64,000 nt of DNA from contig OZ076409.1 of the NCBI GenBank assembly GCA_964187785.1, positions 76,014,001 to 76,078,000 on the forward strand, given 5' to 3'. Of this stretch, positions 16,198 to 44,000 are shown piece by piece. The stretch's first letter is position 1. Each line of letters opens with the position of its first letter. The notes beneath the pieces were generated by a model, which was given only the letters and a program-made list of their open reading frames with translations, did no database searches and was not told the origin of the DNA. The position numbers were made by a program, and so were the translations under genes. Origin of the DNA: Amphiscolops sp. MND2022. Lineage: Eukaryota.

Positions 16198-16220
16198 TAG
16201 CGGGCAAAATCGTGGCTGAA

Positions 16221-18411: not shown

Positions 18412-20512
18412 CGTCTATTGGAATAGTTTTTTGTTTGAACAAAACATTTTTCACATATTTGACTATAATTATGTTCGTATTAAGTGTTTATTGTGACTCA
18501 AAACAAGAAGCTGTTGATTTCTCTACCCTGAATCCATGACTTCATCAGGAAAATAGTGTGAACAAAGTTAGTATCTCAATTCTAAACTGTCAAACTTTAA
18601 AATTGAAGGTTTCTGGTTTGTTTTCAAGTCTTTTTGTTATAATATTTCCACTAATTTTTCAAAAAAAATGGTAGTTTTGGTTGGCAGAAAGGAGCTTAAG
18701 TTAAAAATGTCTCAGTTCTTCGGCCTTCGACAGATGCAAAGAATGGCAATTACGTCATCAAGAAATGAGAATTACGTCATGATGATCGTCATTTGACAGG
18801 CACGTGATTTGATAACGAGAACAAACACGAGCGAGTAATGGACCCGCCCGCTGCTGCACACAACCAACCGAAGCACGACAAGATGGCTGCACAATCGCTG
18901 CATATAAGGGCGATCTGCATAGATGTACTTGGATGTGCATGGATGTTGCTTCATGGATCTGCAGTCAAAAGAGACACAAAACAACAAAGTATATCATCGA
19001 TCGATATCAGTCGCCTTGAAACGATAGATACTTTGATACAAATTGGCGGCGGCGGCGGCAGTTTCCTGATGGTGGTTTTATTCAACCGAGGATCAGATTT
19101 CATTGGCCTGTTTGAAAGATGAGATACGTTCAAAATTCGTTGTTCAAAGAGACAAGAGAGTTGTCATGATGAATGATGAGATGTTTTGGTCAATGTTGTG
19201 AAACGGTGGACCACATACATTGCCAATAGTTTCTGCTTCTTTTACTCAACAACACAAATTCAAAGCCAAATATTGTTGACTAAACAACAAAGCCAAGAAC
19301 TATAGAAACCAAATAAAGGGACACATCGCCAAACCAAACGACACACCATCGACCCAAGAGACATCTTTCAAACTCAACCAGTGTTGGACAATTGCCGAGT
19401 CAGCTTTTGTACAATTTCAAACTTTTTTTCCAATTTTTCGAAAGGAAACATCTTCAATTTTTGACCGCGTGTTTTAAAAATACCAAAACAAGATTCGAAA
19501 CGACTACTTGAAAACATTTCTCTGATTCAATGATAGTGTTTCGAGCATTTCCCAGAAAAAAACTGCGCAGAACATTAGAAATGGTTAGTCCAGAAAACAA
19601 GATCGGAATTCAAAAATTGTTTTTGAAAAATCACGGAAAAAGGCAAATATATCAAAATGGGAAATTTTTGGGCCGTTTTCGCTCCAATGAGATTTCAAGA
19701 TCACGAAGTATTGGAAAACAAGTGACCCTTTTGAGAAATTCTCACAATGCCGAAAAATCAAAGGGGTAAAATCAATCAATTAAAGGTAACCAAAGGGGGA
19801 CCATTTGACCATTTGGATGCTTTCTTGATATTTTGACAGAGAATTGTAAAAAAGAACTTCCATTGGGAGTTCAGCCATCCGACAAAAAAAAGAGAAATAG
19901 TCAACGAACTTTTTTAGAAAATCAAGTTGAAAAACAAAAAAAAACGATTGTTCAACACTGCGCTGCCCATCCAAACAGCTTTGTTGATGTTTAACCAAGA
20001 AACGAAGAAGTTAAGGTTTTTATGAAAATGCAGAGACCACTGTCGACATTCGTGAAAAAAACGTGGCAAGATACTTCTAGACTGTGGGAGATTCTGAGGA
20101 TAGAAAATATCAGTATCCTGCCAGACTTGAGTCTCAACAGGGGCCGAAACAGTTTCGTGTCTCTCACCCTATCCGACATCCAGTACAACACGGGTCTAGC
20201 TCAATTAGACGACCGCTCAACTAACTGATTGATCAATTGGAAGACTATCAGCTGCTTCTAAGATATGGGGACTGTTCAATTCGTCGAACATTCAATTCGT
20301 CGAACACGTATTAATTTAGCGAGTATGGTATGACGTAATGGAATGAATTGATTTCAGCCAATCAAGTTCAAGCATTCAAAATTACGATAACGTAGTCAGC
20401 TATGTCCACATACTCCTAGTGCCCTAAATGCAATAGCGAAGCGAAGCGGAGCGACGTGCCATATGGCCATGCCTCATTATTGCTACTTGCCGAAGGAAGG
20501 GAGCGGAGCGAC

Positions 20513-22526
20513 CCAGGACTGCGGGCGTCGGGTTAAAGGTATTTGGCATACGTCGTCGAAGGGCATGCCTCGGCATGCCCACAGACGATGGGCGTTGATG
20601 TATGCTATGGGGCGTCGGTTGAAGTTTGAGCAACGGTAAGGTGCGGTTTCAGCTTCAAATATTTAAACGAAGCAAGGTTGTCTACGATTTTTAGTATTGT
20701 TACTAAGGTTCATCCAAGAAAATTGGTTCGATAAAGTGTTTTCAGAGTATTTAGACCACATTAAAAGAGATTAAAAAAAGCATTTCCGACAAATATTCAG
20801 GAAACTCATATCCTAATAACGAAAACTAGACATAGTTTTAGTGCTTGGTATACTCTTGTTGATACTCTAATTGACACTAAAGCATTACAAATGTACCCAA
20901 AAACTTCTTTGTTGCATGAGTCTTGAAGGATAGCCTTTCCAAGTTGACACAAGGCCAACTTGAAAGGCTATCATATTATAACGGTTATGTTTTTTGAGGT
21001 TTTGGTGTTCCACAAACTACTATGAAAAAATTTAAACTCTTCAAAAATGGTCCTTATTAGCCTACAATAGAGATTTATTACACAAAAGTACGTTCTGACA
21101 CATTTTAAAACCCGAAAAACATACTCAGACCCAACGTGTTGGACTTCCGGGGCAATATACCGTTACCCCCCACCATGTAATTGGACTATATTCACCTCTG
21201 GAAGAAATTGAAACACCTAACATGTACTTTATTCGGTTAAATAACAAACATTTTTAATCAAAAAACACAAAATGTTACATTTTTTTGGTCATTTCCGTGG
21301 CCAGGGGGACTTCCGGGTCATCATAACGGTTAATCCGGAATGCTCGTCACACTTCACGTCTTCCATCATATGGTGTCCAAAGTCATATTACCCCTCCTTC
21401 CTGCCCGAAATGGCCTTCAAAAACTATAAAAATCCCATTTTTCACTACATAACGGTCATTTCCGACCTAACGGGCCAACAGGGTGTGACTGAAACTAAAT
21501 CCCCCAACTCGTCTCAATGAGTACTACAATATGTTACCTAACGTTGCCACGCTGGGACCGACACTTTGGGCTCAAAAAGTGACATTTCCGGTCACATAGC
21601 GGTTAGGCTGGGGGCCAAGTCCGTAACGGTGATAGATAGCGGAAATCTGTTCGCCCCCCTGAAGGCACCATATCATGGGTATGAAACCTTGTAGTAGTGA
21701 AGGACACGATAGCTCCACGCGTTCACGAGTTAATTTCACTTCAATGCCCGTTTTACGGTTTTACCCCCAAAAAAAGGAGGCAGTCACCCCATTAGCGGCT
21801 AACGGGTCCGTTCAAAGGGTCCCAAACCACATGTTTCCAATAGGTCCTTGTCTAAACGTACTTTTGATATAAGGCACCCGACGCGCTACTACCACTCCTT
21901 CACACCGGAAATAACGGGGAAAATTGGCGGGGGCCACATTTAAAACCCACATAACGGTCATTTCCCGTCCGAGGGGTTAACCGGGGTCATTAAATTACAT
22001 GTCCCCCACTACGTCCCCAGATGCTCTACAAAACATTACCAGACGACCCCGCACTCAGACAACTCCTTCCCGGTCAAAAAGTGCAATTTCCGGTAAAATA
22101 GCGGTTTGAAACCCCCAAACTACCGTTAATATCTCCCCAAGTTTCAGTCCGATATGGACCAAAATTTGTGTACGTACGCTTCTTGACGTGCCCAACAATA
22201 AATCAGCAAGGCGTTACTGCGCTGGACCAACCAGTCCCGAGTAATTGGCTGTGAAATGCAAAATTTTCAAAAAAACGCTATTTTTTACCCCAAAAACCGT
22301 TATATTGACCCACTTTTCGATTTTTGCCGGGAAAACGTCAGTAGTAAATGTTTCTTAGAATTGTTATAGGAAGCCGTGTGCCAAATTTCAGCCGAATCGT
22401 ACGGCTAGTTTTCGAGATCGCATTTTTTTGACCCGGTCGCGGATAGGCTATTTTTGGTATCTAAGGCTCGCGACAGGACCCGTCTCCCGCGCTCGCAAAT
22501 AAAGGTGGGGAGAAAACCCCGACCAC
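20513..22526. repeat. Array unit 1, divergent family-A variant (2014 bp)
   Basis: Shares the GGGCATGCC core, the GATAGCC stem-loop and internal TAACGG/TTCCGG subrepeats with the ~1.97-kb units, but has a different right end. Confidence 0.8.
20561..20580. promoter_or_regulatory. GGGCATGCCTCGGCATGCCC palindrome matching a p53-family response element (first of 21 copies)
   Basis: Two adjacent RRRCWWGYYY decamers with zero spacer (19/20 match). Present near the start of 21 of the 24 units; function is inferred only. Confidence 0.45.
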
Positions 22527-23796
22527 CTAGCGGAAATTGGGGGCGCCCTGTGGCGCTATTTGGCATACGTCGTCGAAGGGCATGCCTCGGCATGCCCACG
22601 GACGGTGGGCGTTGATGCGAGTATGTGGCTTTGACGTTAGTGATGTTTGAGTAGTAGTAAGCTAAAGAAGTGGTTTTGCTTCTGGAGACATGGTGCAAAG
22701 GAAAACTTTTACCAAACACAGCTATCCGTGTGCAATATTGAGAAAGGTCAAATAAAAACCAATATGGGCCATAGTATCAGGTCTTTGGCGAGTACATTCT
22801 CATCTCCCCCACAAGGGGGGAGATGGAATGTACTCAACTGTTTCGTGATATCGGACGAATAAGACGGTAAGGAAAATTTTCAAAATGGGTCCAAAGACAT
22901 TAAAAGGCTTTGTTCTACTATGCAACGGTGATTGAACAGCTATGGGGATGATTGAACGTATTCCGATGAGTTTTTGATTAGACATGACTTACAAAATCTC
23001 ATTTTTGACATTAAAATCCTATAAGATGCTCACACTCAAAATGTCATAAGTCAACGTCAGATTAAGCTACAGAGTCGTTCTATAGCTCATTTTTCTCGTC
23101 TATTCAAGTACTTTCCACATGCATTCACTTGCAATACTAGTTGTGTGGAAGTTTCCTGACTTTGGGACGCCAGAAGGTAATTTTTACAATTTTTGCGTTT
23201 TTTTGAAATTTTTCTAAGTCCCACAACTTTTTGCCAGGAAGTGCTAGAACGCTGAAACCTCGTATTTAGGGCCAAATGGGTTTGCTCGGCAGAAATTTGG
23301 GCAGGGGTTGCCTCCTGTAAAGGCTCTGGGAAAAATTTTGGGCGAAAATGGCAGAGATAAACTGGTATTTGCAACAAATGCACCAAAATTTTCGTTTATT
23401 TCTCAGTCAATTTTCATCTGATTCACCTCAAAATTCGTCCACGCACTCCTCCGACAATGCGGAGCAATATTGTTGTTATTGTGCGAATCGCTCCGGGCAC
23501 TCTGGAAAAAGTTATGAGCCCTCAAAGTCAAAAAGTTGCGTTTTTTATGTCCATTGGCAACTTTTGTTGCATTTTTGACCAACTTTTTGAAAAAATTCGG
23601 AAAAACGCCAGTAGGAAATAGTTCTTAGGATTTGATTCTAGGCCTGTATGCAAAGTTTCAGGAAAATCTAAGGGGTGGTTTTCGAGATCGTCATTTTTTG
23701 AGCGTGTTTAGGGTAGGTAGTAAAACCGGATAACAGCCACTTGGGGCCCCTCCCCCAATTGGACAGAAAAATGCAGGAAAAAAAGTTCCCGGCCAC
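22527..23796. repeat. Array unit, family B (1270 bp)
   Basis: Diverged homologue at 46848-48126 (shared CATCTCCCCC stem-loop and AAATGTCATAAGTCAACGTCA block). Confidence 0.8.
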
Positions 23797-25186
23797 CTAG
23801 CAAATGTGGGCGCCCTGTAGCGCTATTTGGCATACGTCGTCGAAGGGCATGCCTCGGCATGCCCACAGACGGTGGGAGTTGGTAGGAGTGTGTGATGTCT
23901 AATACTACCCTGATTTGTGTACTTCAGCTTGAAATGGTATTCGTCCGGGTGACACCTCTGGACAGGATTCAGATCACTCAGTTGAACAAATGTCTTTCTT
24001 TTGACAAATTGACTTGAAGGAAAAATATCAAGAGAAAGGAGGAAACAAAATTCCACTATTTTTCGTTTTCAGAACAGATAGCCTTCAAGATTGACCAAAG
24101 GTCAACTTGAAAGGCTATCGGGGGTGATAATGGTGATCACTTTTCCGATCTTCAGCAAAACATGCAACGATGTTAGCTTTTTGCGTGGAAAAAAGCATTC
24201 AAATCAAAAAATAATAATAACTTGACCTTAAAAAGCATTGAAAACTGCATTTACGCTACTTTTTGGACCATTTCCGGTCAAAATTGACCTCTTCCGGTCA
24301 CAGGGGGTTACTTCCGGTATCTGGCAGTGTCAGTTACGACTACGCAGTGAATATATATTTTATGCTCTCACTGGTTCAACTGACTTACGCAACTTGAATG
24401 TGGACCAAACACAAGGAAAATTGATAAAAATACTACCAAAAGGGGGTTTTAAGCCCATTTCCGGTCATAGCGAAACCCATGACTGGACAACACGTGGTCA
24501 TTAAGTTGACCCCAGGTTATACTTCACTTTTGATTTCCTGCTAGTTGCTCGTACAATGCCTCCTTACCAGTGAAAATGGAGACTTCCGGTCTGAAAGTGC
24601 ACAAAAACGCTCATTTCCGGTCAAGGGGGTAATGGGGGTGAACTCAACGCATGTCATCGGATCTATCTCAAAATGCCTAACAAATCGTCAGCAGGGTGTG
24701 CACGCGCTAAATCTACGGCTTTATTACGGAAATTAGCAATCTCCCAAATTTAGGGGTCAAAAATACACGGATGCACCCCTCTATCTCTGTGGGGGGGTAA
24801 TCCGAGGGCAACCAAATTTTCTCAGCATACGTAATGGAAGATGCTGCAACTTTTCGTGCTCCACACTTGATACGCTAGGAACAAAGTATCTATGAGTTTT
24901 TTGCTTGAAAAGTTGAAAATGACAAAAAAAACGCAACAATGCGACAAAAATTGCGCAAAAAGTGCAACAAAGACAAGTTTTTCAGCAACCGTCACTCCTA
25001 CACTTTTTCATTACTCATTGATTAGGGGCCACATGCAAAATTTCAGAGAATTCTAACGGTTAGTTTTTGAGATCTCGATTAAATCGGACACTTCTGGTAT
25101 GTGGTAAATTTCGGTACAGGCTCGGCACGGGGCCCTCCCCAAAGCCTCGCAAACGTCATATACGAGCAAAAAAAATACCCGACCAC
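23797..25186. repeat. Array unit, family C (1390 bp)
   Basis: Near-identical copy of the same length at 49161-50550. Confidence 0.9.
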
Positions 25187-26244
25187 CCAGTGGAGGCAGG
25201 TACCAACTACCAGTAAGGCCTATTCAGACAATACTTGATTGAAACTGAAGTTGGTGCAACTTAAAATTGTAAACTTTAATCGTTTTCTTTTCACAACAAA
25301 CCACCTCAAAAAAAGTTATTTTTTCATCTTGATAATTCTACCAAGCACCTCATTGGAAGCACATAAGTTGCACAGACTTTTATCGTTTGTCGCCAATCTT
25401 CCTCCGAAACGCTTCGCGTTCTCCCGGAACATCGGCGATCTTTCTACATGTCATTTAACAAAAAACATAGAATTCCAACAACTGAGAAAAGATTGCAGTA
25501 ATTTGGGATTAAAACTTTAAAAGTGTAATCATTAACCAAAAATAAAAATTAAATGTGTCAAATTCCCCTAAAAAGTCAGCGTAAGTGCTCGGGTACCTCA
25601 TTTTTGACCTCAAAATGTGACAAAACATCAAAAAAGACGAAAAATCCTTTTTTTCGGAAAAATTCTAAATTTTTCGAATTTTTGTAGAACTTTTGTAGAA
25701 CTTTTTTTTGGCCAAATAAACCAAAATTTTTTCCTCTTTGGATTAAACATAAAACCATTCATTTTTATCCATAGGCACTACCTATTCCATTGGGCACTTC
25801 GGAAGTCATGATAAAAAGTGTCAAAAAATCACCTTTTTTGGTGTATATTTTCTATCATATCTCCCGTTGTATTAGGACCTGGCCAAAAATTTTTGGCCAT
25901 CTTGTAGCCTACTTCATTTGTACCTCACACAAAAAGTTTCGGCCTATTGGCTCCAATGGCTGAGGAGCAGCGACTGAAAAGATGCGAAAAATGGGTGATT
26001 TCGACATACATTTGCTCATAACTTCCGTCACAGGGTATGGAGCGAAAAGTGCCAGCAGGAAAAAGTTCTTACATTTTGATTCTATGTCCGCATGCAAAGT
26101 TTGAATAAATTCTAACGGTTCATTTTCGAGATCGTCTCCGTAGACCCCCCCCAACATGTATATTTTTAGCAGGCTATTCTTCAAGCTCGTCACGGGACCC
26201 TACCCGGCCTCGCACTACTCTATGATGGTAAAACACCCGACCAC
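25187..26244. repeat. Array unit, family D (1058 bp)
   Basis: Starts CCAGTGGAGGCA and lacks the GGGCATGCC core. Diverged homologue at 48127-49160. Confidence 0.75.
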
Positions 26245-29034
26245 CTAGCCGCTACCGCTTTAGTGACCTCGCAGGGGCGTGATTTGGCATACGTCGTCGA
26301 AAGGCATGCCTCGGCATGCCTACGGACGGTGGGCGTTGATGTTGGCATGTGGGCGTCGGCTTGAATTACATTATGCGACGGTAAGGAGCGGTTTCACCTT
26401 TGATAAAAAGCATTACAGTTGGTGAAATTTTCAAGCCACTATGAACAGGCATCAGCCAACAATATTTGTTGGAAAATTCGTTTTCCTAAAATGTAGAGCA
26501 CCAACGAAAGAATATAAAAAAATATGTTGTCAAACTTTGTTATCCTATTAAAAGAATCATGTTGAATTTCATCCAACAACGTTAGGAGACATGGTTTTCC
26601 TGATATTCAGTCCACAAATTAAAGGTTGAAAGTTTTTTGTCAAACATTTGTTTCTTACTTATCCTTTTAAAAGAATCATATGAAATTTTTTAACTATGGT
26701 TAAACTTTTGTTGAAGTTCAAATTGGCTATGGATAATAACAAAAACACTCAATCACACTGTCGCTGCGCAGTTGTGAAAGGATAGCCCTTTCAAGTTGAC
26801 ACAAGGTCAACTTGAGGGCTATCATATTGTAACGGTTATTGAGTTAATGGAGTCGAAACTTCAAGCTGATAAAGTGAAAATGTTCAAAGTCTTCAAAAAG
26901 AAACAACAGAGACAATATCGTAGCTATGATCCGCAATTACACGTCGATTGGCACTTCCAAACCAATTTATTATCTTTACTTCCCAACGGGTTGGATTTCC
27001 GTGGCATTTTCCTATTTCTCACCTCATGTTTCCTGTCAAATTCTTTTCTTGAAGCTTTCTGACACCCTGAATGCACTTTGGTTTGATGAAATTACATGTT
27101 TATTCCAACAAAACACAGAAAAGACAAACTTTCTGAAATTTCTCGTGCCACAGCAACTTCAGGGGCATTATAAAGGTCAAGTTCGTACGGTCATCTCACA
27201 ACACCACAATCATCATAAAGTGACCAAAGACCTAATACAGCTACTTCTTGGCTTGAAGGACCTATCGAAAGCAAAAAAAATGTGAAAAAAATTTTTCACT
27301 ACATAACGGTCATTTTCGCTGTTAGTGTGACTTCCGAATCATAATAACGGTTATTTCAGATTGCTTGTTTCACACCAAAACTTTCATTGTATACTGTCCA
27401 AAGACATATTACCGATACTTCCTGCCCTAAATGGCCTTCAAAAAGTATAAAAATTACATTTTTCACTACATAACGGTCGTTTCCGGTCTAACGGGTCAAC
27501 GGGGGGTGACTGAAACTATATCCCCCAACTCGTCTCATTGAGTTCTACATAAAGTTACCTGACGTTCCCACGCTGGGACCAACCCTTTTGGCTCAAAAAA
27601 TGACATTTCCGGTCACATAGCGGTTAGGCTGGGGGGCCAAGTCCGTAACGGTGATATATAGCGGTAATCTGTTTTCCCCCCTGAAGGCACCGTATCATGG
27701 GTATGAAACCTTGTAGTAGTGATGGACACGATTGCTCCACGCGTTCACGAGATATTTACCCCTCAATGCCCGTTTTCCGGTTTTAGCAGTAAAAAAAGGA
27801 GGCGATCACCCTTATAACGGCTAACGGGTTGGGCCAGAGGGTCCCAAACAACATGTTCCCGGTTGGTCCTTGTCTTAACCTACTTTTGATATATGACACC
27901 CGACGCGCTACCCTCACTCCTTCACATCGGAAATAACGGAGAAAGTTGAAGGGGGTCAATTTTAAAACTCACATAACGGTAATTTCCCGTCCGAGGGGTA
28001 AACCGGGGTCGGCAAACTACATGTCCCCCAACACGTCTCTAGATGCTCTACAAAACATTACTTAACGACTCCACTCTCAGACGACTCCTTCCTGGTCAAA
28101 AAGGGCAATTTCCGGTAATATAGCGGTTAGGCTGGGGGGCAAAGTCCGTAACGGTGATAGATAGCGCTGATCTGTTTGCCCCCCTGAAGGCACCATGTCA
28201 TGGGTATGAAACCTTGTAGGAGTGATGGACACGATTGCTCCACGCGTTCACGAGATAATTACACTTTAATGCCCGTTTTACGGTTTTACCACCAAAAAAA
28301 GGAGGCGGTCACCCTATTTCCGGCTAACGGGTCCGTTCAAAGGGTCCCAAACCACATGTTTCTGATAGGTCCTTGTTTAAAGCTACTTTTGATATATAGC
28401 ACTCGACACGCTATTCCGACTCCTTCACACCGGAAATTGCGGGGAAAATTGGAGGGGGCATTTTTGAAACTCACATAACGGTCATTTCCCGTCCGAGGGG
28501 TAAACTGGGGTCGGCAAACTACATGTCCCCCACCACGTCTCCAGATGCTCTACAAAACATTACCAAATGACTCCGCGCTCAGACGACTCCTTCCCGGTCA
28601 AAAAGTGCAATTTCCGGTAAAATAGCGGTTTGGGCGGGGGGCCAAGTCCGTAACGGTGCAAGATAGAAAATTTTTGTTTGGCCCCCCGTACCCACTGCAT
28701 GATGCCCAACAAACCTTTACTAGTGACCGGACCTGCTAAAACGACGGGGGGAAAAGTTATTCACACTTTTATAAATTTTACCCCCTGATTGACCCCTAAC
28801 GGTCGCTCGTGTACCCGTCACAACGAAACCACGGGTATGGAACCTGGTGGGGGGCGACCAGTGCCCAAAATCTGGGTGGGGGCCAAAAAATCATAAACTT
28901 CTGACGGGTGGAATCCGAAATCGGTCTCAAAACATCGAAAAATTTTCATACTACAAGAGTCTTTCAGTACTGAATGTTCGGTAGGGAACCCTACCCTACC
29001 TCACTATATTCTATTGGGGACAGCCCCCCGCCAC
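26245..29034. repeat. Array unit, long family-A variant (2790 bp) with an extra ~500-bp internal subrepeat
   Basis: ATTTCCGGT...AGCGGTT...AAGTCCGTAACGGTG recurs at ~27605, ~28109 and ~28610. Confidence 0.8.
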
Positions 29035-32000
29035 CTAGCCCGGGATGTACGGGCGTCGTTTGATAAGGATTTGTCATACGTCGTCGAAGGGCATGCCTCG
29101 GCATGCCCACAGACGGTGTGCGTTGATGTAAAGTGTGTGGCGTTGACGTTAATTAAACTAAAATATGACGTTTCAGCTTCCATAATGAAATGTAATATTC
29201 AATTTGAACTTTTATAAATCTGTTACAAACATTCCAAAGAATACCATTTGTTAGGTAAATAGGTTTCCTGGCATTTAGGACACATTTTGTATGGAAAAAA
29301 CCATTTTTTTCAACAATTTGCTCACTATGATTCTAATAACGGAATCATGACGGCATAGTTTTTGTCGTTGATACACTGTTGATGAAGCTCTAATTGGTAC
29401 TAATGCAATATATACCTACCCAAAAACACTCTTGATTAACGATTTCAGAAGGATAGCGCTTCCAAGTTGACACCAGGCCAACTTGAAAGGCTATCATAAG
29501 GTAACGGTTATGTTGGTTGAGGTTTCGGAGTCTCTGAAACTATATGGAAAAACTTTAATTTTTAAAAATAGTCCACAAGAGTCGAAAAAATTACGCCGAA
29601 AGACATTTTAAAACCAAAAAACCTATCCTGTCTCCAACGGTTTGACTTCCGGTGCTATATACCGTTACCCCCCACAAGGTTTCATGACTATGTTCACTAC
29701 TGTAGACCGTCGAAACACCTAACAGATACTTTTATCTACAAAATACAAAACATTTGTACCCAATAGACACAAAATTTGACCATTTCCGGTCGTTTACGGT
29801 ACCAGGGGGTCTTTAGGGTCAACATAACGGTTATTTCCGAATGCTCGCCTCACGTCCTCCCTTACCTCATATAGTGTCCAAGCACCTATTACCACTCCTT
29901 CCGCACCTAAATACACTTGAAAAAGTATAAAAATTGCAATTTTACCCACATAACGGTCATTTCCGGTCCCAAGGGGTAACGGGGGTGACTGAAACTATAT
30001 CCCTCAACTCGTCTCATTGAGTACTACAATAAGTTACCTAACGTTCCCCGGCTGGGACCGACCCTTTGGGCTCAAAAAGTGACATTTCCGGTCACATAGC
30101 GGTTAGGCTGGGGGGCCAAGTCGGTAACGGTGATAGATAGCGGAAATCTGTTTGCCCCCCTGAAGGCACCATATCATGGGTATGAAACCTTGTAGTAGTG
30201 ATGGACACGATTGCTCCACGCGTTCACGAGATATTTACCCCCCAATGCCCATTTTACGGTTTTAGCACTAAAAAAAGGAGGCGGAAGCCCCATTTCCCGC
30301 TAACGGGTTGGTCCATGGGGTCCCAAACTACATGTTTCCGATAGGTCCTTGTCTAAACCTACTTTTGTTATATAACACCCGACGCGCTACTCCCACTCCT
30401 TCACACCGGAAATAGCGGTAAAACGTGGAGGGGGGCATTTTTCACGCTCATATAACGGTCATTTCCCGTCCGGGGGGTAAATTGAGGTTGGCAAACTACT
30501 TGTCCCCCACTTCGTCTCAAGGCCGTCCCCAATACATCACCTAACGACCCCGCGCTCAGACGACTCCTTCCGGGTCAAAAACCTGCGTTTCCGGAAAAAT
30601 AACGGTTTGAGCGGGGGGGTACTTGGAGATAGCTTCAAGATAGAAAAATTTGGTTTGGACCTTCGGGGCCCCTGCAACACGGTCAAGAAACTTTTAGCAG
30701 GGTTCCAAAGTTTTAAATCAACAGAAAAAAAGTTATGTGGCCCAATATGAATTTTACCCCTAAAATGACCCCCTAACGGTCGCCCGTGTGGCCAGAAAAA
30801 AATTTTCCGGGGTATGGAACCCGGTGGGGGGCGCTAATTTTCGGAAAATCTGGTGGGGGCCGCTCCAACTTTAAAATCCTATGGTTAGATCACGAGATCC
30901 CGAAATTTTTGCAAGATTTCCTATCGATAGCTATTAGAGTTAAAATCGGATTCAGGACCCTACCCGAATCCTCCAATATATTTGTTGGGGTTACCCCCCC
31001 GCACCTAGCCCGGGATGTACGGGCGTCGTTAGGTATGTATTTGGTATACGTCGTCGAAGGGCATGCCTCGGCATGCCCACAGACGGTGGGCGTTGATGTA
31101 AAGTGTGTGGCGTTGACGTTAATTAAACTAAAATATGACGTTTCAGCTTCCATAATGAAATGTAATATTCCATTTGAACTTTTATAAATCTGTTACATAC
31201 ATTCCAATTAATACCATTTGTTAGGTAAATAGGTTTCCTGGCATTTAGGACACATTTTGTATGGAAAAAACCATTTTTTTCAACAATTTGCTCACTATGA
31301 TTCTAATAACGGAATCATGACGGCATAGTTTTTGTCGTTGATACACTGTTGATGAAGCTCTAATTGGTACTAATGCAATATATACCTACCCAAAAACACT
31401 CTTGATTAACGATTTCAGAAGGATAGCGCTTCCAAGTTGACACCAGGCCAACTTGAAAGGCTATCAAAATGTAACGGTTATGTTGGTTGAGGTTTCGGAG
31501 TCTCTGAAACTATATGGAAAAACTTTAATTTTTAATAATAGTCCATAATAGTCGACAAAGGTACGCCGAAAGACATTTTCAAACCAAAAACCTATCCTGT
31601 GTCCAACGGTTTGGACTTCCGGTGCTATATACCCCGTTACCCCCCACAAGGTTTCATGACTATGTTCACTACTGCAGACCGTCGAAACACCTAATAGATA
31701 CTTTTATCTACAAAATACCCAACATTTGTACACAATAGACACAAAATTTGACCATTTCCGGTCGTTTACGGTACCAGGGGGACTTTAGGGTCAACATAAC
31801 GGTTATTTCCGAATGCTCGCCTCACGTCCTTCCTTACATCATACAGTGTCCAAGCACCTATTACCACTCCTTCCGCATCTAAATGCCCTTGAAATAGGAC
31901 AAAAATGGCAATTTTTTTCACATAACCGTCATTTCCGGTCGTAAGGGGTAACGGGGGGTGACTGAAACTATGTCCCCCAACTCGTCTCAATGAGTACTAC

Positions 32001-35000
32001 AATAAGTTACCTAACGTTCCCTGGCTGGGACCGACCCTTTGGGCTCAAAATATGACATTTCCGGTCACTTAATGGTTAGCCTGGGGGGCCAAGTCCGTAA
32101 CGGTGATAGATAGCGGAAATCTGTTTGCCCCCCTGAAGGCACCATATCATGGGTATGAAACCTTGTAGTAGTGATGGACACGATTGCTCCACGCGTTCAC
32201 GAGATATTTACCCCCCAATGCCCATTTTACGGTTTTAGCACTAAAAAAAGGAGGCGGAAGCCCCATTTCCCGCTAACGGGTTGGTCCATGGGGTCCCAAA
32301 CTACATGTTTCCGATAGGTCCTTGTCTAAACCTACTTTTGTTATATAACACCCGACGCGCTACTCCCACTCCTTCACACCGGAAATAGCGGTAAAACGTG
32401 GAGGGGGGCATTTTTCACGCTCATATAACGGTCATTTCCCGTCCGGGGGGTAAATTGAGGTTGGCAAACTACTTGTCCCCCACTTCGTCTCAAGGCCGTC
32501 CCCAATACATCACCTAACGACCCCGCGCTCAGACGACTCCTTCCGGGTCAAAAACCTGCGTTTCCGGAAAAATAACGGTTTGAGCGGGGGGGTACTTGGA
32601 GATAGCTTCAAGCTAGAAAAATTTGGTTTGGACCTCCGGAGCCCTTGCAACACGGTCAAGAAACTTTTAGCAGGGTCCCAACGTTTTAAATCAACAGAAA
32701 AAAAGTTATGTGGCCCAATATGAATTTTACCCCTAAAATGACCCCCTAACGGTCGCCCGTGTGGCCAGAAAAAAATTTTCCGGGGTATGGAACCCGGTGG
32801 GGGGCGCTAATTTTCGGAAAATCTGGTGGGGGCCGCTCCAACTTTAAAATCCTATGGTTAGATCACGAGATCCCGAAATTTTTGCAAGATTTCCTATCGA
32901 TAGCTATTAGAGTTAAAATCGGATTCAGGACCCTACCCGAATCCTCCAATATATTTGTTGGGGTTACCCCCCCGCACCTAGCTGCTAACGCGCTCGGGGG
33001 TGTTGTGTGGGTGGAATTTGGTATACGTCGTCGAAAGGCATGCCTCGGCATGCCTACGGACGGTGGGCGTTGATGTAAAGTATGTGGCGTTGACGTTAAT
33101 TAAACTATAATTTGACGTTTCAGCTTCCATAACGAGACCTATTAAAATGTTGATCTTCTTTTTCATTGTTATTTAGTTTTAGTCAATACCATTTATTATT
33201 TTATTCAATTTGGTGGAATCAGGACACATTTTACATTGAAAAAATCAACTTTGTAAACAATTTGTTAACTAATATTCTTATAACGGAATTATCACGACAT
33301 CGTTTTTGCCGTTGGCAAACTGTTGATGAAGCTCTAATTGGTACTAATGCAACATATACCTACCCGAAAACACTCTTGATTAACGATTTTAGAAGGATAG
33401 CCCTTCCAAGTTGACACCAGGCCAACTTGAAAGGCTATCAAAATGTAACGGTTATGTTGACTGAAGCATTGGAGGTCCCTGAAACTAATGTGAAAAAATT
33501 TTATTTCCGAAAAAAGTCCGTATTAGTTGATATTATGACGATTCAACCCACAAAACTACGCCTAAAGACATTTTGAAACCAAAAAACCTATTCTGTAACC
33601 AACGGTTTGGACTTCCAGTGCTATATACCGTTACCCCCCACAAGGTTTCATGACTATGTTCACTTCTGAAGGCCTTTAAAACACCTTCCAGGTACTTTTA
33701 TCCATAAAATACCAAACATTTGTACCCTATAAACACAAAATTTGGCCATTTCCGTTCGTTAACGGTACCAGGAGGACTTTGGGGTCAACGTAACGGTTAC
33801 TTCCGAATGCTCTCCTCTCGACCTCCATTACATCATATGGTGTCCAAGCACCTATTACCACTCCTTCCGCACCTAAATACACTTGAAAAAGTATAAAAAT
33901 TGCAATTTTACCCACATAACGGTCATTTCCGGTCCCAAGGGGTAACGGGGGGTGACTGAAACTATATCCCCCAACTCGTCTCAATTAGCACTACAATAAG
34001 TTACCTAACGTTCCCCGGCTGGGACCGACCCTTTGGGCTCAAAAAGTGACATTTCCGGTCACATAGCGGTTAGGCTGGGGGGCCAAGTCGGTAACGGTGA
34101 TAGATAGCGGAAATCTGTTTGCCCCCCTGAAGGCACCATATCATGGGTATGAAACCTTGTAGTTGTGATGGACACGATTGCTCCACGCGTTCACGAGATA
34201 TTTACCCCTCAATGCCCATTTTACGGTTTTAGCAGTAAAAAAAGGAGGCGGAAGCCCCATTTCCCGCTAACGGGTTGGTCCAGGGGGTCCCAAACTACAT
34301 GTTTCCGATAGGTCCTTGTCTAAACCTACTTTTGTTATATAACACCCGACGCGCTACTCCCACTCCTTCACACCGGAAATAGCGGTAAAACGTGGAGGGG
34401 GGCATTTTTCCCGCTCATATAACGGTCATTTCCCGTCCGGGGGGTAAACTGGGGTCGGCAAACTATATATCCCCCGCTTCGTCTCAAGGCCGTCCCCAAT
34501 ACATCACCTAACGACCCCGCGCTCAGACGACTCCTTCCGGGTCAAAAACCTGCGTTTCCGGAAAAATAACGGTTTGGGCGGGGGGGTACTTGGAGATAGC
34601 TTCAAGATAGAAAAATTTGGTTTGGACCTCCGGAGCCACTGCAACAAGGTCAAGAAACTTTTAGCAGGGTCCCAAAGTTTTAAACCAACAGGAAAAAAGT
34701 TATGCGACCGTATATAAATTTTACCCCCAAAATGACCCCTAACGGTCGCCCGTGTACCCCGACAAAATATTTCAATCACGCTGGAACCCGGTGGGGGGCG
34801 AATAACTTTGGAAAATCTGGTGGGGGCCGCTCCAACTTTAAAATCCTACGGTTAGATCACGGGATCGGCAAAATTTTCTAAAATCCCTAACGATAGCTGG
34901 CAGCACTGAACTCGGATTCAGGACCCTACCCGAATCCTCCAATATCTTTGTTGGGGTTACCCCCCCGCACCTAGCTGCTACCGCGGGTGGGTGTAGATAT

Positions 35001-38000
35001 GGAGGGTGTTTGGTATACGTCGTCGAAGGGCATGCCTCGGCATGCCCACAGACGGTGGGCGTTGATGTTAAGTATGTGGCGTTGACGTTAATTAAACTAT
35101 AATATCACGTTTCAGCTTACAAAATGAAACGTAATATTCAATTTGAACTTTTATTACCTGTTATATACAATTCAATCAATATCATTAGTTTGGTAAAAAG
35201 GTTTTCTGGCATAAAGGACACATTTGAAATGTACAAAATCAACTTTATCAACATTTTGTTAACTATTGCTCTAATAACGGAATCATCACGACATAGTTTT
35301 TGTCGTTGGCAAATTTTTCTTGAAGCTCTAATTGATTCTAAAATGATTCAAACATACCCAAAAACACACTTGATCAACGATTTTTGAAGGATAGCCCTTC
35401 CAAGTTGACACCAGGCCAACTTGAAAGGCTATCATAAGGTAACGGTTATGTTGTTTGAGGTTTGGGAGTCTCTGAAACTATATGGAAAAACTTTAATTTT
35501 AAAAAATATTCCATATTAGTTGACAAAAGTACGCCGAAAGACATTTTAAAACGAAAAAACCTATCCCGTCTCTAACGGTTTGGACTTCCGGTGCTATATA
35601 CCGTTACCCCCCGACAAGGTTTCATGACTATGTTCACTACTGCAGACCGTCGAAACACCTAATTGATACTTTTATTTACAAAATACCAAACATTTGTACC
35701 CAATAGACACAAAATTTGACCATTTCCGGTCGTTTACGGTACCAGGGGCACTTTAGGGTCAACATAACGGTTATGTCCGAATGTTCGCCTCACGTCCTCC
35801 CTTCCATCATATAGTGTCCAAGCAACTATTACCACTCCTTCCGCACCTAATTGCCCTTCAAAAAGTACAAAAATCCCAATTTTACCCACATAACGGTCAT
35901 TTCCGGTCCCAAGGGGTAACGGGGGTGACTGAAACTATGTCCCCCAACTCGTCTCAATGAGTACTACAATAAGTTATCTAACGTTCCCTGGCTGGGACCG
36001 ACCCTTTGGGCTCAAAAAATGACATTTCCGGTCACATAGCGGTTAGGCTGGGGGGCCAAGTCCGTAACGGTGATAGATAGCGGAAATCTGTTTGCCCCCC
36101 TGAAGGCACCATATCATGGGTATGAAACCTTGTAGTAGTGAAGGACACCGTAGCTCCACGCGTTCACGAGATATTTATCCCTCAATGCCCATTTTCCGTT
36201 TTTAACCGTAAAAAAAGGAGGCGGAAGCCCCATTTCCCGCTAACGGGTTGGGTCAGGGGGTCCCAAACCACATGTTTCCGATAGGTCCTTGTCTGAACCT
36301 ACTTTTGATATATGGCACCCGACGAGCTACTCCCACTCCTTCACACCGGAAATAGCGGTAAAACGTGGAGGGGGGCATTTTTCCCGCTGATATAACGGTC
36401 ATTTCCCGTCCGGGGGGTAAACTGAGGTTGGTAAACTACATGTCCCCCACTTTGTCTCAAGGCCGTCCCCAAAACATCACCTAACGACCCCGCGCTCAGA
36501 CGACTCCTTCCGGGTCAAAAACCTGCGTTTCCGGAAAAATAACGGTTTGAGCGGGGGGGTACTTGGAGATAGCTTCAAGATAGAAAAATTTGGTTTGCAC
36601 CTCCGGAGCCCTTGCAACATGGTCGAAAAACCTTTAGCAGGGTTCCCAAACTTTTAAACCAACAGGAAAAAAGTTTTATGGACAAATATGAATTTTACCC
36701 CTAAAATGACCCCCTAACAGTCGCCCGTGTGGCCAAAAAAAAATTTTCCGGGGTATGGAGCCCGGTGGGGGGCGATTTATTCGGGAAAATCTGGTGGGGG
36801 CCGCTCCAACTTTCAAATCCTACGGTTAGTTCCCGAGATCCCGGTTTTTGAGGGAAATTTTCTACTGATAGCTGACGGTACTAAGATCGGATTCAGGACC
36901 CTACCCGAATCCTCCAATATCTTTGTTGGGGTTACCCCCCCGCACCTAGCCGCTACCGCAATTGGGTGTAGATATATTGGATTTTGGTATACGTCGTCGA
37001 AGGGCATGCCTCGGCATGCCCACAGACGGTGGGCGTTGATGTAAAGTATGTGGCGTTGACGTTAATTAAGTTAAAACGTGAGGTTTCAGCTTCTATAATG
37101 AAACGAAATAATAATGTTTAACTTTTTTTAACTGTTATTTTGGTCAATCAGTACCATTTATAACGTAAATCGTTTTCCTGGCATTTAGGAAACATTTTAA
37201 ATGCAAAAAATCAACTTTGTCAACAAGTTGTTAACTATTCTTCTACTAACGGAATCATCACGACATGGTTTTTGTCGTTGGCAAACTAATGATTAAGCTC
37301 TAATTGATACTAAAGTGATAAAAACCTACTCAAAAACACACTTGATATACGATTTGTGAAGGATAGCCCTTCCAAGTTGACACCAGGCCAACTTGAAAGG
37401 CTATCATAATGTAAAGGTTATGTTGATTGAAGCTTTGGAGGTCCCTGAAACTATTGGAAAAACCTTTAATGTCAAAAAATATCGAAAATAGTCAATATTA
37501 GAACAATTCAACCCACAAATGTACGTTCATAAGCATTTTAAAACCCAAAAACCTATACTGTGTCCAACGGCTTGGACTTCCGGTGTTATATACCGTTACC
37601 CCCCTCAAGGTTTCATGACTATGTTCATTTCTGGATGCCTTTGAAACACCTTCCATGTACTTTATTCCATAAAATACCAAACATTTGTACCCTAAAAATA
37701 CAAAATTTGACCATTTCCGGTCGTTTACGGTACCAGGGGGACTTTAGGGTCAACATAACGGTTATGTCCGAATGCTCGCCTCACGTCCTCCCTTACCTCA
37801 TATAGTGTCCAAGCACCTGTTACCACTCCTTCCGCGTCTAAATGCCCTTCAAATAGGACAAAAATGGCAAATTTACTCACATAACGGTCATTTCCGGTCC
37901 CAAGGGGTAACGGGGGGTGACTGAAACTATGTCCCCCAACTCGTCTCATTGAGTACTACAATAAGTTACTTAACGTTCCCCGGGTGGGACCGACCCTTTG

Positions 38001-41000
38001 GGCTCAAAAAGTGACATTTCCGGTCACATAGCGGTTAGGCTGGGGGGCCAAGTCGGTAACGGTGATAGATAGCGGAAATCTGTTTGCCCCCCTGAAGGCA
38101 CCATATCATGGGTATGAAACCTTGTAGTAGTGATGGACACCGTAGCTCCACGCGTTCACGAGATATTTACCCCTCAATGCCCATTTTCCGTTTTTAACCG
38201 TAAAAAAACGGGCCGGAAGCCCCATTTCCTGCTAACGGGTTGGTCCAGGGGGTCCCAAACCACATGTTTCCGATAGATCCTTGTCTAAACCTACTTTTGA
38301 TATATGGCACCCGACGCGCTACTCCCACTCCTTCACACCGGAAATAGCGGTAAAACGTGGAGGGGGGCATTTTTCCCGCTCAAATAACGGTCATTTCCCG
38401 TCCGGGGGGTAAACTGGGGTCGGCAAACTACATGTCCCCCGCTTCGTCTCAAGGCCGTCCCCAATACATCACCTAACGACCCCGCGCTCCGACGACTCCT
38501 TCCGGGTCAAAAACCTGCGTTTCCGGAAAAATAACGTTTTGGGCGGGGGGGTACTTGGAGATAGCTTCAAGATAGAAAAATTTGGTTTGGACCTCCGGGG
38601 CCCCTGCAACACGGTCAAGAAACTTTTAGCAGGGTCCCAAAGTTTTAAATCAACAGGAAAAAAGTTATGCGACATTATATAAATTTTACCCCTAAAATGA
38701 CCCCTAACGGTCGCCCGTGTACCCCGTCAGAATATTTCAATCACGCTGGAACCCGATGGGGGGCGCTAATTTTCGGAAAATCTGGTGGGGGCCGCTCCAA
38801 CTTTAAAATCCTATGGTTAGATCACGAGATCCCGAATCCTATCCAAATTTTCTTAACGAAAGCTGGCAGCACTGAACTCGGATTCAGGACCCTACCCGAA
38901 TCCTCCAAAATTTTTGTTGGGGTTACCCCCCCGCACCTAGCTGCTACCGCGGGTGGGTGTAGATATGAAATGTATTTGGTATACGTCGTCGAAGGGCATG
39001 CCTCGGCATGCCCACAGACGGTGGGCGTTGGTGTAAAGTATGTGGCGTTGACGTTAATTAAACTATAATATGACGTTTCAGCTTACATAATAAAACGTAA
39101 TAATCAATTTGAACTTTTATTACCTGGTTTATACAATCCAATCAATACCATTTGTTTGGTAAAGAGGTTTTCTGGCTTTTAGGACACTTTTGAAATGTAA
39201 AAAATCAACTTAATCAATATTTTGTTAACTATTACTCTAATAACGGAATCATCACGACATAGTTTTTGTCGTTGGCAAACATTTCTTGAAGCTCTAATTG
39301 ATTCTAAAATGATTCAAACATACCCAAAAACACACTTGATCAACGATTTTTGAAGGATAGCCCTTCCAAGTTGACACCAGGCCAACTTGAAAGGCTATCA
39401 TAAGGTAACGGTTATGTTGTTTGAGGTTTGGGAGTCTCTGAAACTATATGGAAAAACTTTAATTTTAAAAAATATTCCATATTAGTTGACAAAAGTACGC
39501 CGAAAGACATTTTAAAACGGAAAAACCTATCCCGTCTCTAACGTTTTGGACTTCCGGTGCTATATACCGTTACCCCCCACAAGGTTTCATGACTATGTTC
39601 ACTACTGCAGACCGTCGAAACACCTAATAGATACTTTTATTTACAAAATACCAAACATTTGTACCCAATAGACACAAAATTTGACCATTTCCGGTCGTTT
39701 ACGGTACCAGGGGGACTTTAGGGTCAACATAACGGTTATGTCTGAATGTTCGCCTCACGTCCTCCATTCCATCATATAGTGTCCAAGCACCTATTACCAC
39801 TCCTTCCGCACCTAATTGCCCTTCAAAAAGTACAAAAATCCCAATTTTACCCACATAACGGTCATTTCCGGTCACAAGGGGTAACGGGGGGTGACTGAAA
39901 CTATGTCCCCCAACTCGTCTCAATGAGTACTACAAAAAGTTATCTAACGTTCCCTGGCTGGGACCGACCCTTTGGGCTCAAAAAGTGACATTTCCGGTCA
40001 CATAGCGGTTAGGCTGGGGGGCCAAGTCCGTAACGGTGATAGATAGCGGAAATCTGTTTGCCCCCCTGAAGGCACCATATCATGGGTATGAAACCTTGTA
40101 GTAGTGAAGGACACCGTAGCTCCACGCGTTCACGAGATATTTACCCCTCAATGCCCATTTTCCGTTTTTAACCGAAAAAAAAGGAGGCGGAAGCCCCATT
40201 TCCCGCTAACGGGTTGGGTCAGGGGGTCCCAAACCACATGTTTTTGATAGATCCTTGTCTAAACCTACTTTTGATATTTGGCACCCGACGCGCTACTCCC
40301 ACACCTTCACACCGGAAATAGCGGTAAAACGTGGAGGGGGGCATTTTTCACGCTCATATAACGGTCATTTCCCGTCCGGGGGGTAAATTGAGGTTGGCAA
40401 ACTACTTGTCCCCCACTTTGTCTCAAGGCCGTCCCCAAAACATCACCTAACTACCCCGCGCTCAGACGACTCCTTCCGGGTCAAAAACCTGCGTTTCCGG
40501 AAAAATAACGGTTCGAGCGGGGGGGTACTTGGAGATAGCTTCAAGATAGAAAAATTTGGTTTGCACCTCCGGAGCCCTTGCAACATGGTCGAAAAACCTT
40601 TAGCAGGGTTCCCAAACTTTTAAACCAACAGGAAAAAAGTTATATGGACCAATATGAATTTTACCCCTAAAATGACCCCCTAACTGTCGCCCGTGTGGCC
40701 AAAAAAAAATTTTCCGGGGTATGGAGCCCGGTGGGGGGCGATCTATTCGGGAAAATCTGGCGGGGGCCGCTCCAACTTTCAAATCCTACGGTTAGTTCCC
40801 GAGATCCCGGTTTTTGAGGGAAATTTTCTACTGATAGCTGGCGGTACTAAGATCGGATTCAGGACCCTACCCGAATCCTCCAATATCTTTGTTGGGGTTA
40901 CCCCCCCGCACCTAGCCCGGCATGTACGGGCGTCGTTTGGGTATGTATTTGGTATACGTCGTCGAAGGGCATGCCTCGGCATGCCCACAGACGGTGGGCG

Positions 41001-44000
41001 TTGATGTAAAGTATGTGGCGTGGACGTTAATTAAACTGAAATATGACGTTTCAGCTTCCATAATGAAACGTAATATTCAATTTGAATTTTTATAAATCTG
41101 TTACATACATTCCAATCAATACCATTTGTTAGGTAAATAGGTTTCCTGGCATTTAGGACACATTTTGTATGGAAAAAATTATTTTTGTCAACAATTAGCT
41201 CACTATTATTCTAATAACGGAATCATGACGGCTTAGTTTTTGTCGTTGATACACTGTTGATGAAGCTCTAATTGGTACTAATGCAAAATATACCTACCCA
41301 AAAACACTCTTGAATAACGATTTTAGAAGGATAGCGCTTCCAAGTTGACACCAGGCCAACTTGAAAGGCTATCGAAAGGTAACGGTTATGTTGATTGAGG
41401 TTTCGGAGTCTCTGAAACTATATGGAAAAACTGTAATTTTTAAACATAGTCCATAATAGTCGACAAAAGTACACCGAAAGACCTTTTCAAACCAAAAACA
41501 TATCCTGTGTCCAACGGTTTGGACTTCCGGTGCTATATACCGTTACCCCCCACAAGGTTTCATGACTACGTTCACTACTGCAGACCGTCGAAACACCTAA
41601 TAGATACTTTTATCTACAAAATACCAAACATTTGTACCCAATAGACGCAAAATTTGACCATTTCCGGTCGTTTACGGTACCAGGGGTACTTTAGGGTCAA
41701 CATAACGGTTATTTCCGAATGTTCGCCTCACGTCCTCCCTTACCTCATATAGTGTCCAAGCACCTATTACCACTCCTCCCGCACAAAAATGCACTTCAAA
41801 GAGTATAAAAAATGCAAATTTACCCTCATAACGGTCATTTCCGGTCCCAAGGGGTAACGGGGGGTGACTGAAACTATGTCCCCCATCTCGTCTCATTGAG
41901 TACTACAATAAGTTACCTACCGTTCCCCGGCTGGGACCGACCCTTTGGGCCCAAAAAGTGACATTTCCGGTCACATAGCGGTTAGGCTGGGGGGCCAAGT
42001 CGGTAACGGTGATAGATAGCGGAAATCTGTTTGCCCCCCTGAAGGCACCATATCATGGGTATGAAACCTTGTAGTAGTGATGGACACGATTGCTCCACGC
42101 GTTCACGAGATATTTACCCCTCAATGCCCATTTTACGGTTTTAGCAGTAAAAAAAGGAGGCGGAAGCCCCATTTCCCGCTAACGGGTTGGTCCAGGGGGT
42201 CCCAAACTACATGTTTCCGATAGGTCCTTGTCTAAACTTATTTTTGATATATGGCTCCCGAAGCGCTACTCCCACTCCTTCACACCGGAAATAGCGGTAA
42301 AACGTGGAGGGGGGCATTTTTCCCGCTCATATAACGGTCATTTCCCGTCCGGGGGGTGAACTGGGGTCGGCAAACTATATATCCCCCGCTTCGTCTCAAG
42401 GCCGTCCCCAATACATCACCTAACGACCCCGCGCTCAGACGACTCCTTCCGGGTCAAAAACCTGCGTTTCCGGAAAAATAACGGTTTGGGCGGGGGGGTA
42501 CTTGGAGATAGCTTCAAGATAGAAAAATTTGGTTTGGACCTCCGGAGCCCCCGCAACACGGTCAAGAAACTTTTAGCAGGGTCCCAAAGTTTTAATCCAA
42601 CAGGAAAAAAGTTATGCGACCGGATATAAATTTTACCCCCAAAATGACCCCTAACGGTCGCCCGTGTACCCCGTCAAAATATTTCAATCACGCTGGAACC
42701 CGGTGGGGGGCGAATAACTTTGGAAAATCTGGTGGGGGCCGCTCCAACTTTAAAATCCTATGGTTAGATCACGAGATCCCGAAATTTTTGCACGATTTCC
42801 TATCGATAGCTATTAGAGTTAAAATCGGATTCAGGACCCTACCCGAATCCTCCAATATATTTGTTGGGGTTACCCCCCCGCACCTAGCTGCTACCGCGGG
42901 TGGGTGTAGATATATATGTAATTGGTATACGTCGTCGAAGGGCATGCCTCGGCATGCCCACAGACGGTGGGCGTTGATGTAAAGTATGTGGCGTTGACGT
43001 TAATTAAGTTAAAACGTGAGGTTTCAGCTTCCATAATGAGACCTATTAAAAATGTTGAGCTTCTTTTTCAATGTTATTTAGTTTTAGTCAATACCATTTA
43101 TTATTTTATTCAATTTGGTGGCATTGGGACACATTTCGAATGGAAAAAATCAACTTTGGAAACAATTTGTTAATTAATATTCTTATAACGGAATTATCAC
43201 GACATCGTTTTTGCCGTTGGCAAACTGTTGATGAAGCTCTAATTGGTACTAATGCAACATATACCTACCCAAAAACACTCTTGATTAACGATTTTAGAAG
43301 GATAGCCCTTCCAAGTTGACACCAGGCCAACTTGAAAGGCTATCAAAATGTAACGGTTATGTTGACTGAAACATTGGAGGTCCCTGAAACTAATGTGAAA
43401 AAATTTTATTTCCGAAAAAAGTCCGTATTAGTTGATATTATGACGATTCAACCCACAAAACTACGCCTAAAGACATTTTGAAACCAAAAAACCTATTCTG
43501 TAACTAACGGTTTGGACTTCCGGTGCTATATACCGTTACCCCCCACAAAGTTTCATGACTTTGTTCACTTCTGGAGGCCTTTAAAACACCTTCCAGGTAC
43601 TTTTATCCATAAAATACCAAACATTTGTACCCTATAAACACAAAATTTGGCCATTTCCGGTTGTTAACGGTACCAGGGGGACTTTGGGGTCAACGTAACG
43701 GTTACTTCCGAATGCTCTCCTCACGACCTCCATTACATCATATAGTGTCCAAGCACCTATTACCATTCCTTCCGCACCTAAATGCCCTTCAAAAGGTATA
43801 AAAATTGCAATTCTACTCACATAACGGTCATTTCCGGTCTCAAGGGGTAACGGGGGGTGACTGAAACTAGATCCCCCAACTCGTCTCAATGAGTACTACA
43901 ATTTGTTACCTAACGTTGCCCGGCTAGGATCGACCCTTTGGGTTCAAAATATGACATTTCCGGTCACTTAACGGTTAGGCTGGGGGGCCAAGTCCGTAAC

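Follow-up and report, generated by a model that had tools for sequence, protein, structure and literature searches.

The window (the whole stretch of DNA that was analyzed, 64,000 nt) is occupied from position 20513 to its end by an array of 24 head-to-tail, same-strand, non-coding units of 1.0–2.8 kb, which belong to several families. To the left of the array, a Ty3/Gypsy retrotransposon at 11795-18101 on the minus strand carries gag (with a zinc knuckle), reverse transcriptase, RNase H and integrase in separate frames. A run of N at 17649-17848 lies within this element, a 232-nt stretch of its gag region is repeated at 1014-1245, and it has many relatives at 50–97% identity. The element marks the window as eukaryotic; together with its closest atlas clusters, it leads us to take the host for an animal. 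On the plus strand, 6012-8388 contains two long frames (392 and 260 aa) without a Pfam match. Their counterparts in the atlas, hAT-derived FAM200/ZBED proteins at a score of 0.76, are no more than a lead. A 60-nt tandem repeat (2.4 copies) is found at 2282-2427. The flank adjoining the array, 20414-20512, contains two segments that end in GCGGAGCGAC and small hairpin-like motifs with GAA loops, all single in the window, and is perhaps the end of another small element.

At one end, 21 of the 24 units carry the conserved segment that is the subject of this study (the core), while D, D2 and E have different ends. All units are assigned to the minus strand and are listed here from left to right. 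Unit A (20513..22526, 2014 nt) resembles family C at about 76% over a stretch of 1.6 kb. It is followed by unit F (22527..23796, 1270 nt), whose core-bearing end is 88–90% like that of B over 100 nt and whose body is 70% like that of the core-less E, and by the first copy of unit B (23797..25186, 1390 nt), with D as the next unit on the plus strand. Unit D (25187..26244, 1058 nt) has no core and ends in CTGG on the minus strand; unit A2 (26245..29034, 2790 nt) carries a variant core haplotype and extra internal subrepeats of ~500 nt. Nine family C units of 1970–1993 nt (29035..46847) are recombination mosaics, one of which, starting at 32978, has the variant core. Then come unit E (46848..48126, 1279 nt), which has no core, a small end hairpin of its own and a body related to F; unit D2 (48127..49160, 1034 nt), again without a core and ending in CTGG; the second copy of B (49161..50550), 98.8% like the first, with a T>A change in the core loop and C as the next unit on the plus strand; and seven more C units (50551..64000), the last of which is cut by the window end. 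Relatedness over 1.6 kb unites A, A2 and the 16 C units; F and E have one body in common, D and D2 another, and B is present twice. Ends and bodies are mixed: F and B have a common end and different bodies, F and E a common body and different ends.

Several features of the unit bodies were recorded on the side. An internal subrepeat of ~500 nt (68–72% identity) lies at 21436-22109, at 27457-28726 and at the same places in the C units, and A2 carries an additional copy that is 84% identical. The hexamer TTCCGG, which we take to be an ETS-like core, occurs 18 times on the plus strand of seven representative units (2.8 expected); it sits in the array bodies of A, B and C (e.g. 31617-32783 and 24272-24620), and none is present in the F and D units. 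AACGG, presumably MYB-like, has 24 occurrences in the same seven units (14 expected). Neither motif is enriched in the flank. The observed/expected ratio of CpG is 0.94 in the units and 0.99 in the flank, giving no sign of methylation-driven decay.

The units meet at a common junction. On the window's plus strand, the motif [C/G]ACC[C/T]AG is found 24 times; each unit start has one copy, and the unit interiors have none. On the minus strand, 21 units end in CTAG and three in CTGG, so that all 24 ends fit CTRR, with the cut possibly falling up to 2 nt further. At all 23 inner junctions the 5' start on this strand is GTG, and the order of parts within a unit is GTG, a shared stretch of 190 nt, the body, a long hairpin, the core hairpin (38–48 nt before the minus-strand end), a variable linker and CTAG or CTGG. 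The shared end of ~190 nt, first exemplified at 22337..22526 on the minus strand, is a putative, LTS-like 5' end. A profile hidden Markov model (HMM) built from eight units detected it in all 23 complete units and in a metagenome contig (L001); it is homologous in all families and more diverged than the core-side end. A suspected resemblance of this end to the DINE-1/HINE core was not confirmed: four short window motifs had no match in 10 supplementary text files of PMC4067079. Since the unit-end HMM has no match in the DNA left of 20513, we regard this position as the true edge of the array. At this edge (20510..20516, plus strand), host GAC adjoins CCAG of the first unit (CTGG on the minus strand); the sole outer flank thus reads GTC on the minus strand and resembles the units' own GTG start.

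The two copies of B, 98.8% identical over 1399 nt, show how the units behave. Their match stops at the junction motif; B is followed by D at one locus and by C at the other, and the C/T letter of the motif travels with the following unit. Therefore, whole units are mobile modules, cut between CAC and CYAG, give or take shared letters. The one motif shared at each junction could be read as in Replitrons; apart from it, no significant direct repeat between unit ends was found. Comparison of the first and last 130 nt of 10 units gave a best score of 9 (p 0.055 versus shuffles), and no subterminal inverted repeats were called. A small hairpin near the unit end is predicted for some end types, with −4.8 to −6.7 kcal/mol in F, B, E and one class of C and −0.5 to −0.8 kcal/mol in A, D2 and another class of C. 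Its 5-bp stem lies 13–16 nt from the end in F and B and directly before the end in one C class, and is weak or absent in the others.

The core copy at 20541-20600 reads GACGATGGG. Its 20-nt palindrome (20561-20580) recurs at 20 further places up to 62459, giving 21 copies in the 64-kb window in a single orientation, where 100 shuffles gave an expectation of 0; an HMM search for decayed further copies found none in the window. In the alignment of the 21 window copies and L001, 45 of 60 columns are invariant and the mean identity is 96%; the sixth column differs from G in seven of the 21 copies. The near-invariant core and its palindrome, as originally predicted, are thus real. The accompanying claim, that the flanks diverge where the core does not, holds between families (B and C are 90% identical in the core window and 38–68% elsewhere) but fails within family C and between A and C. 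In the 15 complete C units, the invariance of the core is equalled by 15% of 44-column windows, and interior 50-nt windows of A and C are 94–98% identical, compared with 92% for the core window. The core is therefore exceptional only between families, not within C. As it lies 32–42 nt after CYAG in 21 of the 24 units, whereas D, D2 and E lack it and end otherwise, the core is the conserved part of one end type, common to families with unrelated bodies.

Variability at this end peaks in the linker next to the core, with a pairwise difference of 27% versus 3% for the core. We considered the linker as a guide or acquired spacer and rejected this, since other unconstrained parts of C differ equally (0.22–0.47 versus 0.38) and the linker type goes with its unit. 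The core was also proposed to be flanked by iteron-like GGGYGTNG repeats. GGYGTNG is indeed enriched near the junction (51 occurrences in the first 130 nt of the 24 units versus one in the remainder), but with 0–3 repeats per unit and uneven spacing (~67 and 20 nt) the term iteron applies only loosely.

The fold suggested by the original prediction, a bulged hairpin at 20551-20590 in the first copy with an inner stem of 9 bp and a loop of 2 nt, was borne out: it is 100% paired in every core copy (240 of 240 cells, all 16 distinct rows). An alternative outer register with a 3×3 internal loop and G-T pairs on the plus strand is likewise 100% paired. Two-base loops of the type C(TC)G or C(AC)G can close mini-hairpins of DNA. 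For four 60-nt core copies, folding z values were −2.4 to −3.1 whichever strand was folded; as neither strand is favored, polarity is not fixed by the core. The outer stem is formed by 13 invariant nt before the 20-mer and by the 7 nt after it, of which 6 are invariant. None of the substitutions in the 22 copies (21 and L001) breaks a pair. Two single changes fall within columns 11–47, one in the loop and one in the bulge, and the chance that both would hit the 7 unpaired columns of 37 is ~0.03 (calculated by hand). The CGAA bulge never varies across the core copies, indicating that sequence matters and not shape alone. A double change at 26302 and 33036 (units starting at 26245 and 32978), also present in L001, keeps both the pairing and the p53 consensus, as had been noted. 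However, it is always accompanied by a third change, ACA>ACG, so that the copies represent one haplotype and count as one event; one doubly changed pair was reached in 256 of 500 shuffles. The double change fits the hairpin and the p53 readings alike and, being one haplotype with at least one event, separates neither. In unit 32978 the variant haplotype is surrounded by C-type flanks, and therefore it probably entered this unit as a short conversion tract.

Further support for folding comes from a second hairpin of ~20 bp, which lies 200–520 nt inward in every family, those without a core included, and is weak in D. It occurs as three sequence types at a similar distance from the core-side end, with its shape conserved across families. 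Type I, long and bulged, is present in A (20929..20972), A2, B and all C units; type II in F (22790-22835), E (47106-47153) and L001; the long bulged hairpin of D2 lies at 48337-48381. At one position of type II, the pair is A-T, T-A and G-C in F, E and L001. With DNA parameters, the type I hairpin of A and C is more stable by 1.1–3.0 kcal/mol on the minus strand, and that of A2 and B is equally stable on both. This second hairpin is better support for folding than the double change in the core.

The original prediction read the folded core as an attC-like or rolling-circle origin-like site. The first of these would correspond to a cassette array of the Crypton or integron type, run by a tyrosine recombinase: circles would insert at a core site of 6–7 bp, and the hairpin would serve as attC. 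Precise head-to-tail joints at a short shared motif, made without duplication, are what such an array would give, and Cryptons have terminal direct repeats of 4–6 bp and non-autonomous derivatives (PMC3212892). In an exchange of this type, the crossover would lie within a dyad site, made of two inverted arms of 11–13 bp about 6–8 bp, or within a folded attC; here the exchange point, at CAC and CYAG, lies 38–48 nt outside the hairpin. Moreover, no constant dyad or arms were seen around the junction by eye, no recognizable gene is present in the units (two array frames scanned), and no recombinase was seen. We consider this mechanism very improbable. The rolling-circle part of the claim fits the anatomy, with the hairpin as a subterminal signal.

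The same 20 nt had also been described as a p53-type site. The p53 consensus, as quoted in PMC3485254, consists of two RRRCWWGYYY decamers with a spacer of 0–13. The inner stem (20561-20580) is made up of two adjacent decamers with 0 and 1 mismatch; at spacer 0, 20 of the 21 copies have one mismatch and one copy has two, with all central C and G kept. The predicted match is therefore real, although the second decamer departs from the consensus at its first base in all 21 copies. No other site of this quality was found in the 64-kb window. We simulated random hairpins with a 9-bp stem and a 2-nt loop (200,000 per base composition): such hairpins equal the match in 1.7–3.5 of 10,000 cases, and a self-palindromic arm arises in 0.8–2.3%. 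The p53 match is thus not an automatic by-product of palindromy, in a test that was post hoc and concerned one motif among many.

We consider it unlikely that the core is kept mainly as a duplex tetramer site for the p53/p63/p73 family, through which the array or its elements would answer to DNA damage or germline signals. This could take two forms, with the element using a host factor or the host silencing the element through it. The quality and uniqueness of the site in the window, its rarity among random hairpins and the double change, which preserves the consensus, speak for such a role. There is also a precedent: EnSpm-N6_DR of zebrafish, described in PMC3485254, is, like the units here, a non-autonomous DNA element with two-decamer p53 sites, which are functional there. 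According to the same source it is a cut-and-paste element with terminal inverted repeats (TIRs), dispersed near genes and with demonstrated binding, whereas the predicted site here forms the stem of the subterminal hairpin of arrayed units. The p53-type site spans 20 of ~40 conserved bases, and the ~20 others, which form the outer stem, are not explained by it. Both departures from the consensus, the invariant mismatch and the T>A change of unit 49161, which adds a mismatch and keeps the stem, sit in the loop, where a hairpin tolerates them. The site is missing from three of the 24 units, and a host gene close to the array was not found within the window.

It is also improbable that the core itself lacks any current function, either as an ancestral end kept uniform by gene conversion or as part of a small RNA gene. 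The C units are heavy mosaics: the 15 complete ones differ by 0.9–13.5%, nearest neighbors change along the unit, and at least 57 recombination events were counted over 255 informative sites, with incompatibility rising with distance. The three-change haplotype in a C unit with C-type flanks is what a short conversion tract leaves. However, conversion alone does not leave a pattern in which the adjoining linker is the most variable part, and the same core is found in L001, whose body is 71% like that of F. As for a small RNA, Rfam gave nothing above 20.3 bits on 18000-35000 (cut-offs 58–66; three weak miRNA matches, E 3–3.6) and ARAGORN found no tRNA. The divergence and the shifting nearest neighbors also excluded an origin of the C run as a single-round concatemer.

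L001, the sole exact match among metagenome contigs, has the same layout as the window array. Its unit end was detected at an HMM E of 1.9e-20 although it was absent from the training set; its core is identical to that of unit 32978 (51 of 51), and the likeness of its body to F extends over 334 nt. Its junction reads CAC followed by CTCG, giving CGAG on the minus strand and not CTRR. Viral contigs had no matches to four patterns. The single match in prokaryote genomes, 21 nt in a bacterial contig with nothing else alike, was rejected as chance and excluded from all counts. A survey of sequencing runs gave one, with a share of 0.22, and none of RNA. The 21 X1 contigs over 20300-26400, of low depth, yielded no usable core variants. 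One of them departs from the window sequence at 20496, with flank-like sequence and then GAG instead of the array; it could be an empty site or another junction and, as a single contig, was not counted as support. No certain empty site was found, and one array edge lies within the window. No transposase was found among the 12 window reading frames scanned against Pfam, two of which lie in the array. In the literature available to us in part, we found no description of this junction or of Helitron ends with a p53 site; the family may already be named in Repbase or Dfam.

With moderate confidence, we favor the explanation that the core is a subterminal cis-signal at the 3' end of non-autonomous, Helitron-like rolling-circle elements, dependent on an HUH transposase, that insert at their own ends and were later shuffled by recombination. 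Its starting points are demonstrated (modularity, the junction, shared ends and possible folds); the transposase, the strand, the role of the hairpin and the target rule are what we infer. A transposase supplied in trans would nick the junction and peel off the minus strand, and the hairpin would pause it, leading to a cut at CTRG. The copy would then integrate before a GT(G/C) site, which each unit's own start re-creates. The likeness of the GTC of the host flank to the GTG start suggests, from this one edge, that units stack one by one, each copy re-creating the target. Unequal exchange and gene conversion would afterwards shuffle units and move core haplotypes between families. The self-symmetric arms of the core give it a second, double-strand face, a p53-type tetramer site that is possibly bound and need not be the reason for which the core is retained.

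Consistent with this model, one junction motif marks all 24 unit starts on one strand and is absent within units, B was exchanged as a module, CTRR is found at 24 of 24 ends, the other end is more diverged, ends and bodies are mixed, no core substitution breaks a pair, every family has the second long hairpin, and L001 shares the layout. Against it, no transposase or autonomous partner was seen among the scanned frames, the start is GTG and not TC, and the outer flank is GTC and not T. The hairpin is 38–48 nt and not ~11 nt from the end, and the near-end hairpin is confined to some end types. L001 has CGAG in place of CTRR, the core folds equally on both strands, three of the 24 units lack it, and the window offers one array edge and no certain empty site.

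The same HUH chemistry might run with the opposite polarity, which we regard as rather unlikely. The plus strand would then be nicked at CACC^YAG, the core and GGYGTNG would form the binding locus of an initiator, as in IS91, Replitrons or plasmid origins, and the target would be the last four bases of the element. The host flank ends in GAC-C like each unit end, the GGYGTNG repeats cluster beside the junction, and the alternative plus-strand outer stem with G-T pairs is fully paired; the nic/bind layout of pMV158 and the direct terminal repeats of Replitrons (PMC10288648) provide parallels. However, the distance from junction to core ranges from 32 to 42 nt, three units have no core, and the favored direction is indicated both by CTRR at all 24 minus-strand ends and by the better minus-strand folding of the type I hairpin. 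Replitrons are, in addition, reported from plants, algae and protists, and the word 'metazoa' does not occur in the accessible text of PMC10288648.

If the favored, minus-strand reading is true, these units represent a Helitron-like terminus type missed by annotators based on TC/CTRR and on TIRs (such as those in PMC11417382), and a route from mobile element to 2-kb satellite through self-targeted stacking; the origin of satellites from transposons is treated in PMC9659126. Should p53 indeed bind, the same 20 bp would serve as a hairpin when single-stranded and as a tetramer site when in duplex form, and p53 recognition of mobile DNA in invertebrates would be testable with a single oligonucleotide. 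Combining both, one may imagine rolling-circle elements of animals that form a class not yet described, with GTG...CTRG ends, self-junction targeting and mixed-family cassette arrays, in which a predicted p53-family tetramer site in the termination hairpin wires mobilization or silencing to the DNA-damage response; we consider this quite unlikely. If neither reading holds, the locus is an ordinary transposon-derived tandem array.

Among known systems, canonical Helitrons run from TC to CTRR, have a palindrome or hairpin of 16–20 nt ~11 nt from the 3' end and insert between A and T without duplication, whereas Helentrons and HINEs have subterminal inverted repeats (12–15 bp) and insert between T and T (PMC4067079; PMC11417382). 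The left ends of Helitrons are reported to be more diverse (PMC11417382), the 3' hairpin of Helraiser is a termination signal, and circles with precise head-to-tail junctions and tandem Helitron arrays are known (PMC4778049, PMC5876387, PMC7492417). Like HLE1 elements (Helraiser/Helibat and those in tandem arrays), the units have no TIRs, a CTRR 3' end (CTAG in 21 and CTGG in three of 24) with an upstream hairpin, head-to-tail arrays, interchangeable 3' ends and a more diverse left end. Unlike them, they start with GTG (23 of 23) and not TC, the target is not A-T (the sole outer flank reads GTC on the minus strand), the main hairpin is ~40 nt long and lies 38–48 nt from the end, the arrays mix unrelated families, and no RepHel partner was seen among the 12 scanned frames. 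With HINE/DINE-1, the non-autonomous Helentrons (HLE2), they share the absence of genes, stem-loops near an end (here the 3' end), internal subrepeats and a link to satellite formation; they lack the 12–15-bp subterminal inverted repeats and TT at both flanks, and here whole elements are in tandem. Since CTRR is present while TC, the A-T and T-T targets and the inverted repeats are absent, we did not file the units as members of HLE1 or HLE2; most likely they function in the same way as those elements.

The existence of other termini, alternative right ends and fixed targets is known from Paramecium Helitrons (PMC13085455). As described in that source, these Helitrons resemble the units in their non-canonical termini, several right ends per body, sequence-specific target, uniform orientation and many non-autonomous copies; theirs end in CCAA, insert into telomeric repeats and have known transposases, whereas the units here end in CTRG and apparently target their own ends. 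Replitrons and IS91-type elements likewise have a short motif shared by terminus and target and a subterminal hairpin, but the accessible text of PMC10288648 holds no reports from animals, and the polarity and partner of our units are putative. The termini thus differ from those of the described Helitron groups.
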